DNA from: an uncultured archaeon
GTDB taxonomy: Archaea; Asgardarchaeota; Thorarchaeia; Thorarchaeales; Thorarchaeaceae
Direction: 5' to 3'
DNA length: 37,986 nt
Assembly (NCBI GenBank): GCA_964558645.1
Contig: CAZLEV010000026.1
Coordinates: forward strand, 1-37,986
Part shown: positions 17,642-37,986 of the stretch, piece by piece
Layout of the letters: the number at the start of each line of letters is the position of its first letter
How positions within the stretch are numbered: position 1 is the first letter of the stretch
Program-made: the position numbers and the translations under genes
The notes under the pieces: model-generated
Databases searched by the model: none
Told to the model about the DNA's origin: nothing
Seen by the model: only the letters and a program-made list of their open reading frames with translations

Positions 17642-18011
17642 GAACATCGATGCTTACCATATCGTGGCTCGTGCATCCAGAGTCCATGTAGAATCATGTC
17701 TTGCCTGCACTGTCAGTTATGGTCATGCATGGATGGGAAGCAGTACCTGCCTGAGCACCCGACGAAAATTTCGTGAGCATAAAAGGGTTGCGATAAAACG
17801 AAGATATGGTCTATCAACTAGCGGGGCTATAAGAGAATAAGCCGAGAAATGTATGGGATAAGGTCTGTAAAAAGCTTATGCTGCTGCTATCAACTCGGGC
17901 AGGTGATGTCCGGGAGGAAATCTAGGCTGGGCCATGTCCGACAACTTTAATAGATTAACAAGAATCGAGCGAATCGGCTCGTCAGTCCAAGGGGATTGAG
18001 GGCTGAAATGG

Positions 18012-18119
18012 GCCCCTGTAGTGTAGTTCGGCCTAGCATCCGAGACTGTCAAGCTTTGACGCTTGATGTCTTGGAGCAGACCTCTCGGGACCCGGGTTCG
18101 AATCCCGGCGGGGGCGCCA
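18012..18119 (+). tRNA. tRNA-Asp(GTC) with a 30-nt intron at 37/38 (18052-18081)
   Basis: GCCCCTG/CGGGGGC-G-CCA acceptor stem, CGAGA/TCTCG anticodon stem. Relaxed BHB: CTGT:GCAG helix with CA|A and AC|C bulges. Confidence 0.93.
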
Positions 18120-18358
18120 CTTCCTTCTGATGAATGGTATCACGAGTCAGCCAAGGGATTGAGTGTGTTTTGTTGAGATCATGCTTTCACGTATTTTGTG
18201 TTTGTTCGAGCACGGTCTTGTTGAGAAACGACCGTCTTGAAAACTCTTGAAGAGTTTGACCTGGAATTCTGGAATCTTGAAAACGCATTGACTTCCTAGT
18301 CATTTTGTCAGATATGTGTAAGATTTCCTCCTTGCTGACATGTAGTCTTGAACACTCT

Positions 18359-18409
18359 CAGGGGAGGGATGGAACGCAGAAGTCTCTTCCAGGTGATGTT
18401 CACTCACCA
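18359..18409 (+). repeat. Detached copy of the tnpB element 3' end / omegaRNA 3' scaffold
   Basis: 48/51 nt identical to the reverse complement of 35554-35604. Confidence 0.85.
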
Positions 18410-18498
18410 AACTGTAAGAAACAGATTATCTAGAAATCGGATTGTTGAAATGGAGGAGATGTGCTTCACCGGGTACAATGTTGTTCCAGAGGTGAGTA

Positions 18499-19497
18499 AT
18501 GATTACAACTGATTTTCTTAGCTCCTGCTACAAGACAATGATACAGCAAGAGCAGTCAATTCCAAGAACCTTGAAGAACGTTCCAGAGGGACAAGAGAAC
18601 ATTCTGAGAAATGCTGACAAAGTGATTCTGACGGGTGCAGGAGACTCGTTAGCGGTGGCAGAATACGGTGCTTTATTATTGCAGGAACTGGGCATTCATG
18701 CCATTGCTTTGACGCCAACAGTCGTCAACAGATTGCCAATCTCTACAGGGGATCTCCTCGTTGGAATCACAGCATCGGGTAGAAGCCTTTCCACTATTGA
18801 TGCATTACAGCATGCTAGGAAAGAGCGAGCCACATCTGTAGTCTTGACGGATAATCCAGATGGGAACGCTGCAAATCTCGCAGAAACAGTATGGACTACA
18901 GTTTCAGGCGTTGATACATACGACATCATTCCAACAGCCCCTACAACGACAGCAATGGCTTTCCTGCTGGGCCTTGTTTCGCGATTAGATGAGAGATTGA
19001 GCAAAGAGATTGAGAGACTGCTTGACGGCCTGTCATCAATAATGGATTGGGCGGAATCTAGGGGAGAAGAGATTGCAGGAAGAATAAACTTAGATGGCGT
19101 AGTCTGTTTCCTCTCAGAGGGAGAAAATCTAGTAGCTGCACATATAGGGATGATGAAACTGAATGAGAGCGCACTCGTTCGGGGAGTTCTGGTGCTTCGT
19201 GAAGAATTCGAGCATCATGGCAACCTGCCAGCTCGAGAAGAGGACTTTGTAATCCTAATCAGTGATACCCCGAATAATGGGAGAGATTTCCAGTATATGA
19301 AAGTGCTCACTGAACATATTGAACTCCAAGCCTATAACCTACATTTGCCCGAAAGATACCAGATAGCGGAACCAGCAGTTCAGGCCTTAGGGAATACAAT
19401 TGCCATGCAGATGATGGGATATTATTTGATTCTCGAACACAACCCCTCAATGGAGTGGTTCAGGATGCCTAACGCAAAAGCATTCAGAATCTATTGA
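18499..19497 (+). CDS. SIS-domain sugar-phosphate isomerase/deaminase (GlmS C-terminal-like)
   Basis: GAGDS, GITASGRS and EEFEHHG. Tandem SIS domains. Confidence 0.88.
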   Translation: MITTDFLSSCYKTMIQQEQSIPRTLKNVPEGQENILRNADKVILTGAGDSLAVAEYGALLLQELGIHAIALTPTVVNRLPISTGDLLVGITASGRSLSTIDALQHARKERATSVVLTDNPDGNAANLAETVWTTVSGVDTYDIIPTAPTTTAMAFLLGLVSRLDERLSKEIERLLDGLSSIMDWAESRGEEIAGRINLDGVVCFLSEGENLVAAHIGMMKLNESALVRGVLVLREEFEHHGNLPAREEDFVILISDTPNNGRDFQYMKVLTEHIELQAYNLHLPERYQIAEPAVQALGNTIAMQMMGYYLILEHNPSMEWFRMPNAKAFRIY

Positions 19498-35300: not shown

Positions 35301-35403
35301 GGGCGCGTAGTCTAGAGGATAAGGCGCTTGCCTTCGGTGGGCCTTCTTTCGATGGTCCGAAGTAAGCAAGATGTCCCAGGTTCGAATCCTGGCGCGCCCG
35401 CCA
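35301..35403 (+). tRNA. tRNA-Arg(TCG) with a 27-nt intron at 37/38 (35338-35364)
   Basis: GGGCGCG/CGCGCCC-G-CCA acceptor stem. Canonical BHB: CTTC:GAAG helix, GG|T and TA|A bulges, GGGCC:GGTCC outer helix. Confidence 0.95.
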
Positions 35404-35553
35404 CTCATGTCCAACTTCTAAAAGATGTAGTGCATTTTGTTGTTTGTACGTCAGCTTCTCGTTTCCTCACATTCTAGTTTCTCAAAAACGAGAAACTTCT
35501 TCTAGACTCTAGATGGAGACCATACTAGACTATAATCCATCTCTCGCGTCTTA

Positions 35554-35700
35554 TGGTGAGTGAACGTCACCTGCAAGAGACTTCTGCGTTCCACCCCTCC
35601 CCTGCCAGTGTCACCACTCCCAGACACCCAAAGGATCTCTGAGTCAGCAGGGGCATTGTCCGCGCTCATGGGGATGGTATCCCTCCCACGGACCGGGTTT
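35554..35700 (-). ncRNA. Predicted omegaRNA/reRNA at the tnpB 3' end (5' limit uncertain)
   Basis: Position downstream of/overlapping tnpB. CCCCUGC/GCAGGGG stem and GAAG-hairpin-GUUCAC end. Second copy at 18359-18409. Confidence 0.6.
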
Positions 35701-37403
35701 CCTCCTCCTGTGCCTGTGCCGGGGCATCACTCCCGACCACAGCGAGGTCTTCCGCAGTACTTTCCACGGCGGGATCATCATCACCCATCTCGACCCCGTC
35801 GCCGAAGTCAAGAAGGCTCGATTGAGCATGGTGAACAGCCGCGGACTCTCCGGGACCTGATGTAGCCCCTTGTTTGGAGAGTAAGGACCTCCGTCGAGAA
35901 GAAGAGCTCTTCCCTCGGGCCTTCGGCCGCGAGCTCCCTGCAACTGCACTGGCCCACTTGCCTAGTCCTCTCACGTCATGCAGTGATGAGGTGAGCGTGA
36001 TATACCGTCCGGCGATGTTGATGGCTCCGTTCCTGTCAGCGTTGCAGCGGTTACCACAGGTCGGGCAGACAAAGTAGTTCTGTTTCGGCCTGTGGCCCCT
36101 CTGACCACATTTCCAGCAGATGATGGATGTCCAGCTCTCAGGAACAGCACGAAACCGGGAACCCTTTCCAGAAACATTCCAGCCAAGCTGTGCAAGCTGG
36201 AACTTGAGGCTCTCAGTGATGCGTGAGAAGGCCCAGGAGTGTATCATGGCCCGGAACTTCCGCCCCTTGTAGTTGCCACGTCTGGCCGCCGCCCGAATAT
36301 GCTTGAGCCTGCCCATAACCACATGAAGATTGTATCTCTCCGCCAACTCCGAGATGTAGTCAACCAGTTGTCGCACCAGTACCCGGTCGTACTCGCGGGT
36401 CACATTCGCTCTCTTCGAACTGATTAGCCGTAGCCGTCGGACCACCTTGTCGGTGGGTTGTCGGTTGTTCTGTCTGGTGTGATACTCGTGCTGCAGGTCT
36501 GCAACAAGCCCATCCAGCTGCTTGATCCGCAGGACCTTCTCAGTCTGGACGAAGTATCTGGTTTCCCGAACCTTCTCGGGAGTGACAAGAGCTGTGCATG
36601 CAGCCTTCTTGATACCCAGATCAATGCCGAGTACTGCAGGGGGTAGCTCTTTCCTCGGAGACTTGAGAACGTTGACCCTGACCGCAATAGTCACCCACCA
36701 TTTCTGCTGTCTGTCGGTGAATATCTGCAGCGCCTTCACCTCACCTCTCCCGAGCTGATTGAGATGGAAGGGAGACATCTTCAGGGGAATCAACAGTCGG
36801 TCGTGGATATTTCGTCCTTCGGGCGCAGAGTCTAGAGAGTCCCGCAGGTCAAGCCACCAGCGCGCAACCGTGGTATCGTGTTCTACCAGTTTGAACTCCC
36901 GCTTGAAGGCCCATCTAGGGATTCTCCGGGAAGAGACTATCCTGCAGGGGCGGGATGTCTTTCGCCCTTTCCTGCGGCGGCGCAGTTCAAGGTAACCCTC
37001 GTAGAGCTCCACAGCGGTCTTTCTGCACTCAGCAAGCTCGTTCTGAGACGCTCGGGGGTATCGTGCCTTCAGGTCATGAGGAACCGTCAGCCTCTTGCTG
37101 CAGCCCTTGCTGACCTTTATGGCCGTCAGTGTGAGCTCATCCAGTTTCCCGTCGTGGATTCGATTCTTATCGCGACCTATGAGCAGTTCATCTTCGTGTT
37201 CTTCAATCACTCCGAGAAAGGCCCGGATCACGCGGGTGTCACGTCCAACTATTTGCCGTAAGCGCTGTCTAGTCTTCTCTGTCATGACCTCCCATTTGAC
37301 AGGAACCTTGACCGAGATTGTGACACCATCAGACCGAGCCATCGCCTTCGCCTTTGAGGTATTTAAGTTTCTGACCTGTTTCAGTCAGGTGAGTTCACTC
37401 CCC
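35555..37403 (-). mobile_element. Non-autonomous tnpB-only element bounded by imperfect inverted repeats
   Basis: GGTGAGTGAACGTCACCTG (35555-35573) versus CAGGTGA-GTTCACTCCCC (37386-37403). Visibly GC-richer than its flanks. No transposase between the ends. Confidence 0.7.
35666..37342 (-). CDS. tnpB: TnpB-family RNA-guided nuclease with rearranged RuvC-II
   Basis: RuvC-I VLGIDLG. RuvC-II VVMGRL (Gly for Glu) with alternative Glu in VPESWTS. CWKC/CPTC Zn finger. RuvC-III NADRNGAINI. Confidence 0.92.
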   Translation of the reverse strand: MARSDGVTISVKVPVKWEVMTEKTRQRLRQIVGRDTRVIRAFLGVIEEHEDELLIGRDKNRIHDGKLDELTLTAIKVSKGCSKRLTVPHDLKARYPRASQNELAECRKTAVELYEGYLELRRRRKGRKTSRPCRIVSSRRIPRWAFKREFKLVEHDTTVARWWLDLRDSLDSAPEGRNIHDRLLIPLKMSPFHLNQLGRGEVKALQIFTDRQQKWWVTIAVRVNVLKSPRKELPPAVLGIDLGIKKAACTALVTPEKVRETRYFVQTEKVLRIKQLDGLVADLQHEYHTRQNNRQPTDKVVRRLRLISSKRANVTREYDRVLVRQLVDYISELAERYNLHVVMGRLKHIRAAARRGNYKGRKFRAMIHSWAFSRITESLKFQLAQLGWNVSGKGSRFRAVPESWTSIICWKCGQRGHRPKQNYFVCPTCGNRCNADRNGAINIAGRYITLTSSLHDVRGLGKWASAVAGSSRPKARGKSSSSRRRSLLSKQGATSGPGESAAVHHAQSSLLDFGDGVEMGDDDPAVESTAEDLAVVGSDAPAQAQEEETRSVGGIPSP

Positions 37404-37793
37404 CTTTTGTGAGAACAGAGGTTATTGAACTCGTAGAATTGCATAGTATGCAAGTATTTAAGTTCATTAAACAAATCTCTAAATAAAGTATGGAAGCCAA
37501 AGACGCTGTCTAGTGACCATTTTGGAGCATAGATCCGTTTATACACTATCGAGTAGAGATGGGTGGGTTCCCACGTTTTTTCTTTGGGTTTCCAATAGGG
37601 GCATCACGTGTTTCTCACAACCACGTCGTTACTGTCTAGAAGGCCACTCAACACCGAATTCTCCATCGATACAGGTATTTCGTTCAGGTCTTGGGCGTCA
37701 CGACAAAGGGACCCAGCCTCGCAATCTAGTCCCTCTCTCACACCATCTTCAGGAGTACAAAGACTGTGTGCAAGGCTACTCGGAGGAGCAACT

Positions 37794-37897
37794 ATGTGTA
37801 CGGGTGTACAATACATGAGGTCTAAGTGGAGAAACATCTGTACGGGGGTCCAATATGCGAAACCCGGCGGAGGAAGGATCTGTACGGGGGTACAGTA
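37794..37897. repeat. Three 20-bp palindromic repeats at an exact 42-bp period with 22-bp variable spacers
   Basis: ATGTGTACGGGTGTACAATA (37794), ATCTGTACGGGGGTCCAATA (37836) and ATCTGTACGGGGGTACAGTA (37878). Confidence 0.85.
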
Positions 37898-37986
37898 GCG
37901 ATATGACTGGAGAAGAGATGGTTGTTCGTCTGCAGTGCTTTCCCGCGGCTGCGAAGACTATGCCTCAGCCAGCTTGCGCATCTTTT

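Follow-up and report, generated by a model that had tools for sequence, protein, structure and literature searches.

The window analysed here is a stretch of 37,986 nt from the genome of an uncultured Thorarchaeales archaeon, and its best DNA matches were found in marine sediment metagenomes. It carries a tnpB element and, between a tRNA-Asp gene and a SIS-domain gene, a solo copy of the right end of this element (Table 1). A sequence-only reading of the window had described the solo copy as a 48/51 match to the 3' end of the tnpB element, and this was reproduced: 18359-18409 (+) aligned with 35554-35604 (-) with 3 mismatches in 51, none such being expected by chance. The upstream stem partners pointed out in that reading (CCTTGCTGAC and CCCTGCTGAC) were found to be homologous in the alignment, with a shorter interior in the solo copy; the tRNA genes reported beside the two copies were both identified, and tnpB was indeed absent at the solo copy. 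The tnpB ORF itself was intact. Its RuvC-I and RuvC-III Asp residues and its zinc finger aligned to solved TnpBs, and the canonical RuvC-II Glu did not.

Table 1 Features of the window and related features elsewhere in this genome (positions refer to the window unless a contig is named)
Feature	Position	Strand	Basis
tRNA-Asp(GTC), with intron; mini-element 155 nt downstream in the same orientation	18012-18119	+	Rfam; ARAGORN with introns
Left junction-core copy TCTGGA (consensus TC-NN-GA)	18268-18273	+	Left and right 6-mers agree in most copies; empty allele with one TCTAGA
Left-end part of the mini-element	18274 to ~18325	+	Alignment of copies; nhmmer left-end profile
Right-end part, truncated omegaRNA 3' domain	18326-18428	+	Homologous to 35530-35643 (-); long-form covariation structure; folds
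P2-like stem of the window copy	18324-18335 with 18359-18369	+	Long-form structure; folds
Conserved core GGAACGCAGAAGTCTC	18371-18386	+	Homology to the tnpB-element right end
Last stem-loop	5' arm 18382-18392; inner hairpin 18392-18408; 3' arm 18412-18422	+	Long-form covariation; folds
AACTGTAAGAAACAG, read earlier as the guide flank; 3' arm of the last stem plus linker, inside the element	18410-18424	+	Matches in right tails only; at least 9 genera; pairing
Terminal AGATTA	18423-18428	+	Right-end alignment
Right junction-core copy TCTAGA	18429-18434	+	Joint of 18268 to 18430 in a contig of run X3; sister-genome empty site agrees
True right flank, the only possible source of a TnpB guide if RNA were made	18435-18454	+	ISXfa1/IS605 boundary rule; kept in empty alleles
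tRNA-Arg(TCG), with intron, beside the tnpB element	35301-35403	+	Rfam; ARAGORN with introns
omegaRNA-like region of the tnpB element	35530-35968	-	blastn; alignments; covariation
tnpB, 558 aa, only close full-length relative in the genome	35666-37342	-	Pfam Cas12f1-like TNB; tblastn; PDB TnpB matches
Short gene-less copies	C26:18268-18435; C2:325286-325452; C2:404413-404593; C6:184835-185008; C13:103974-104152; C17:54857-55035		
~580-bp gene-less forms	C9:22648-23222; C4:5412-5995; C4:65119-65680; C15:57516-58095; C5:237183-237769; C2:161629-162192; C2:385790-386281		
tRNA genes near family copies	18012-18119 and 35301-35403 in the window; C2:432898-432973; C2:385475-385550; C16:25793-25897		

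A search of the whole assembly of this genome (G000) with blastn and nhmmer returned six full copies of a 161- to 180-bp unit on 5 contigs, with 85-97% identity, plus right-end fragments. The flanks of these short copies were unrelated to one another, as is the case for dispersed repeats, and the 161-bp element of the window had no coding capacity. There were also at least seven gene-less forms of ~580 bp, made up of a left end that contains a TATA-like box (AATAAATACC or TTATATACC) and, joined to it, the 3'-terminal ~415 nt of the tnpB element. The box lies ~25 nt upstream of the start of this conserved tnpB 3'/omegaRNA region, the stretch retained corresponds to 35554-35968 of the window, and the forms end in tail variants of their own. 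These ~580-bp forms look like dedicated omegaRNA genes and are more numerous than the one cognate tnpB.

The solo copy had been thought to lack any left-end sequence. However, the segment from 18274 to ~18325 was found by nhmmer to be a left end, homologous to those of the ~580-bp family, which had been missed because it is dissimilar to the left end of the window's tnpB copy. With a profile of the ~580-bp left ends, matches to four other short copies of this genome were obtained at E values of 9e-9 to 3e-5; the window copy was not among the matches listed. In the short form a C-run marks the point where this left end meets the right end, and two inner hairpins are also missing. Of the three genomes of the genus, this one had the junction 6 times and its two sisters had it 5 times and once; the search of 58 further genomes of the archaeal family did not find it, and it gave 0 matches in JGI metagenome contigs, a set that may omit records near this genome. 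The sharing of exactly this junction points to a single deletion event, after which the short form spread within the genus. One of the short copies (C2:404412-404586) lies between perfect 9-bp ATCTGGAAT repeats, and its terminal hairpin is mutated; when its 174 bp were removed in silico, the frame spanning the site grew from 104 to 132 codons, as would be expected if the insertion had interrupted a gene.

The boundaries of the solo copy were set by alleles that do not carry it. In the sister genome G001, which belongs with G002 to the same genus, the window was matched at 17950-18267 and 18431-18999 with 91% identity and nothing between, i.e., an empty site. A contig of run X3, from an independent metagenome study, links 18268 directly to 18430, so that 161 nt are skipped and one TCTAGA remains. 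Conversely, five insertions of G001 and G002 have their empty sites in G000, with one 6-mer each vs two at the occupied site. The copies are thus polymorphic for presence and absence with precise boundaries, and a TC-NN-GA 6-mer is found at both of their junctions and once in the empty sites. Six variants of it (TCTAGA, TCTGGA, TCAGGA, TCAAGA, TCTTGA and TCGTGA) were each found on the left and on the right, and the two sides usually agree within a copy. The central NN correlates significantly with lineage, but subfamily structure confounds this correlation, and there is one exception to it. The element therefore ends at TC-NN-GA and extends from 18274 to 18434, flanked on the left by TCTGGA at 18268-18273, in place of the 18324-18430 first assigned to it, and a flank-derived guide could start only at 18435. 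No convincing terminal inverted repeats were found; those seen were of at most 4 bp (ATCT/AGAT) and inconsistent across subfamilies. No tandem or circle-junction pattern (right end, core, left end) was matched in the JGI metagenome contigs, which may omit records near this genome, and no empty site was found for the full tnpB element, whose locus is rearranged in G001 and occupied by a copy in G002.

Because RNAalifold gave no consensus on the raw MAFFT alignment of right ends, the RNA structure of the long forms was then defined by hand and tested on an alignment of 22 long-form 3' domains (A1). Standard pairs filled 83.8% of the cells in A1 as drawn vs 38-44% when the partners were slid by 1-3 columns, and both-side changes were seen at 27 pairs as drawn vs 9-16 in the slid versions; values as high as those observed were not obtained in any of 500 shuffles. 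The structure consists of a Px stem, an H1 hairpin, a closing stem P2 (96% paired), a variable hairpin H3, a hairpin H4 with a GNRA tetraloop (97% paired) and the last stem-loop. In the last stem-loop the core GUYUCUURCAG (A1 columns 130-140) pairs with the tail CUGYAAGARAY in 81% of cells, with both-side changes at four pairs. No Rfam family matched the solo copy or the tnpB copy, either at the gathering score or at loose E-values. As in omegaRNA/reRNA of the ISDra2 type, the structured domain overlaps the 3' end of tnpB, reaches the right end and has covarying helices. Unlike that type, it has no Rfam family match, and the conserved region is ~415 nt in the gene-less forms and only the last ~100 nt in the solo copy.

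From these results, the solo copy is an ordinary mini-transposon, a non-coding, internally deleted member of a Thorarchaeota tnpB element family, and window 18274-18434 is very probably a 161-bp non-autonomous, PATE/MITE-like mini-element in which a left end was joined to the last ~100 nt of a tnpB-family right end. Gene-less derivatives of tnpB elements formed by core deletion have been described in archaea (Haloquadratum) as PATEs (PMC3119063). The mini-element resembles them in its end-to-end core deletion, the lack of an ORF, its multiple copies and its strain-specific presence or absence, and also in that it keeps the 3' part of the right-end omegaRNA and depends on proteins supplied in trans. 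It differs from PATEs in its left end, which bears direct repeats and not a subterminal palindrome. Nor does it agree with a strict IS200/IS605 derivative: no Y1 transposase was found in the genus, the 6-mers on the two sides co-vary, and a long hairpin is present at the right end but no palindrome was seen at the left; matched TC-NN-GA stands at both junctions, while IS605 leaves no duplication. Like MITEs, the family is small, non-coding, multi-copy and flanked by short direct repeats; unlike strict MITEs, it lacks terminal inverted repeats. Gene-less derivatives carrying omegaRNA parts are already known as PATEs, and the solo copy adds a further example.

As the short copy keeps both P2 strands, the invariant core, the last stem-loop and the tail, it was considered whether it could also be a working trans guide-RNA gene, in which the ~100-nt scaffold would bind the window TnpB, take its guide from 18435 and have the vacated site cut, so that the mini-element would be restored by recombination. 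Such a role has been proposed before: Meers et al. 2023, working on Geobacillus, noted that PATEs often encode omegaRNAs and suggested that TnpB would use them in trans. An intact close tnpB is present in this genome. Both deletions left the two P2 strands intact, and in the short copy a pyrimidine run of the left end pairs with the purine run after P2 and thereby extends P2; three substitutions between short subfamilies in this P2-extension helix keep the pairing as U:G, C:G or U:A. Between these subfamilies the core is 80-94% identical vs 32-62% for the terminal left end, which hints at constraint on the short-form core, although gene conversion or DNA-level needs are other possible causes of this conservation. 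Against this role, the short copy has lost Px, H1, H3 and the GNRA-loop hairpin H4, four helices whose pairing covaries in all long forms, and also the left-end TATA-like box of the ~580-bp forms. The last stem of the window copy also contains a mismatch, and the fold energy of this copy was no better than that of shuffles on either strand (z ~0), i.e., a thermodynamic signal is absent. A working trans guide-RNA gene is thus a possible but doubtful reading; it would supplement the mini-element explanation with selfish retention in trans and would not replace it.

Because the left-end TATA-like box was deleted, transcription of the mini-element would need read-through. The RNA, if made, would be a truncated omegaRNA whose guide is the flank from 18435, and TnpB would therefore be aided only to re-cut the element's own empty site, with no new target. 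The right-end piece was probably retained because a recombinase motif (TGTAAGAAA) lies in it, as do the core and last stem-loop of the omegaRNA. A broader claim can be made for all gene-less forms (at least seven of ~580 bp and six of 161 bp), namely that they are trans guide-RNA genes which borrow one TnpB with a shifted RuvC-II Glu for their own retention, flanked by TC-NN-GA and with no linked IS605/IS607 transposase; we consider it unlikely. One tnpB alongside more than a dozen gene-less relatives nevertheless provides a natural setting for testing the use of TnpB in trans by omegaRNA-only elements.

The mini-element would have to be moved in trans by a recombinase encoded outside it, most likely a serine TnpA of the IS607 type. 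It has been reported that IS607 elements have direct subterminal repeats and no terminal inverted repeats (IS1535/IS607, PMC6188088), and that in ISXfa1 the TnpA repeats lie inside the last reRNA stem-loop and the guide starts at the element boundary (bioRxiv 10.1101/2023.08.09.552727). The present family shares these traits: direct TGTMAGA repeats occur two to three times in the left end and once in the right end, the latter motif lying inside the last reRNA stem-loop, terminal inverted repeats are lacking, the same short core is present at the exchange site in the target and at the ends, and the guide would start at the boundary. Two direct TGTMAGAWW motifs are present in the left end of the window copy (18306-18314 and 18317-18325), which lacks a 13-nt unit, inserted in other copies, that bears a third. 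Unlike IS607, the family has a 6-bp TC-NN-GA core vs GG, no tnpA is linked to the members examined, and the left ends differ from those beside the IS607-type tnpA genes of the archaeal family (ACAGC followed by two TTGGACA repeats).

IS607-type TnpA (MerR HTH plus resolvase, ~200 aa) was found in 16 of the 41 genomes of the archaeal family and Y1 transposase in 3 of them, neither being found in the genus. No Y1 or serine recombinase gene passed Pfam in this genome and no intact one was found in the genus; fragments of serine TnpA remain in G000 (C2:462460-462849, C5:222181-222430 and C1:506319-506429). Neither type of gene was found within 1.5 kb of 30 family tnpB loci. Searched for an autonomous partner, the left-end profile matched only the known gene-less copies and two fragments, and no candidate transposase adjoined any left end. 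In five relatives (L038, L040, L041, L043 and L044; cf. G000 C2:462400-462850) the IS607-type tnpA is convergent to and abuts an ORF of 435-490 aa, for which no Pfam match was found in the three scanned.

A serine recombinase acting in trans is favoured, with about an even chance of being the enzyme. The matched 6-mer, longer than the known 2-bp core of IS607, might instead reflect genuine target duplication by an enzyme of another class, such as a DDE-type or tyrosine recombinase and not a TnpA of IS607 or IS605. A prokaryotic tnpB would then have an unusual vehicle; among eukaryotes, Fanzor2* elements that show target duplications are known. The co-variation of the left and right 6-mers, every variant of which occurs on both sides, speaks for a duplication, and close relatives may differ in the central NN, as do the copy on C17 (TA) and L011 (TG), which are 96% alike. 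On the other hand, TC-NN-GA is dyad-symmetric about its central dinucleotide, as expected of a serine-recombinase crossover site, and the correlation of NN with lineage, the lack of terminal inverted repeats beyond 4 bp and the lack of a candidate transposase next to the left ends all speak against such an enzyme, which we regard as improbable.

In the sequence-only reading, the solo copy was a minimal guide RNA whose different flank, AACTGTAAGAAACAG, would serve as the guide and give TnpB a second specificity. This segment is the 3' arm of the last stem, as supported by covariation. The 16 nt after CACTCACC plus GATTA are present in 10 copies of the genome, among them all the full short copies and two ~580-bp forms (C9 and C4), and the order CACTCAC, conserved TGTAAGAAAYRGGTTATC and WRGA recurs in elements of at least 9 genera. 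All genomic matches of the AACTGTAAGAAACAG segment sit in right-end tails and none elsewhere, and the insertion boundary lies 10 nt past it. The presumed guide is therefore a conserved, base-paired portion of the element end and not a flank, and the interpretation built on it goes back to an element boundary that was set in the wrong place. In some distant members of the family the similarity between copies ends right after the CACTCA motif, which fits a scaffold ending there in those lineages; for the solo copy, with a segment identical in 10 copies that pairs with the core through compensatory changes, a second specificity of this kind is highly improbable. The right end is corrected to ~25 nt past the CACTCACC motif, the tail being part of the last RNA stem, and for these Asgard TnpBs the TC-NN-GA junction is therefore the point from which TAMs and guides have to be predicted. 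The other option offered in that reading, a decayed remnant, was right in that the copy is a derivative, homologous to the right end only of the full element and without tnpB, but erosion of a full tnpB element at this locus is barely credible for a mobile, multi-copy unit with a left end of its own, the same deletion junction in 12 copies at different loci of three genomes and precise empty alleles at the solo-copy locus.

The tail of the window tnpB copy is itself a variant (35530-35553, followed by TCTAGT at 35524-35529), so that among the copies compared the tnpB copy, and not the solo copy, is the odd one out. Counted by eye on the sequence, this divergent tail still forms 9 of the 10 last-stem pairs. 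The window tnpB copy and its relative in G002 are identical over the last 57 nt to CACTCACC, mostly different over the next ~16 nt and alike again at GATTAT, and this difference may have arisen by recombination between the right ends of two subfamilies. G008 (L063) has a comparable variant of the tail. The variant 16-mer was tried as a fixed guide, and its single match with 1 mismatch (C16:58981, ~0.08 expected), showing no extension or adjoining TC-NN-GA, was judged to be due to chance. The right flanks of the window and G002 copies are unrelated, and ~590 nt upstream of tnpB are common to both, reaching the start of a divergent ORF (MTGEEMVVR, + strand from 37905). This shared intergenic region contains TGTAC-N4-GTACA repeats (37781-37930), which may therefore belong to the promoter of the neighbouring gene and not to the element.

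A tRNA gene is found at a distance of at most ~330 nt from five of the 20 family copies, vs 0.9% of random 200-nt windows within 300 nt, and the right end of full-length tnpB copies tends to face the 3' end of a convergent tRNA. The mini-element of the window lies 64 nt upstream of the co-oriented SIS-domain gene (18499-19497). No obvious TATA box was seen between the two (18435-18498), so the element may sit in the 5' leader or promoter region of this gene.
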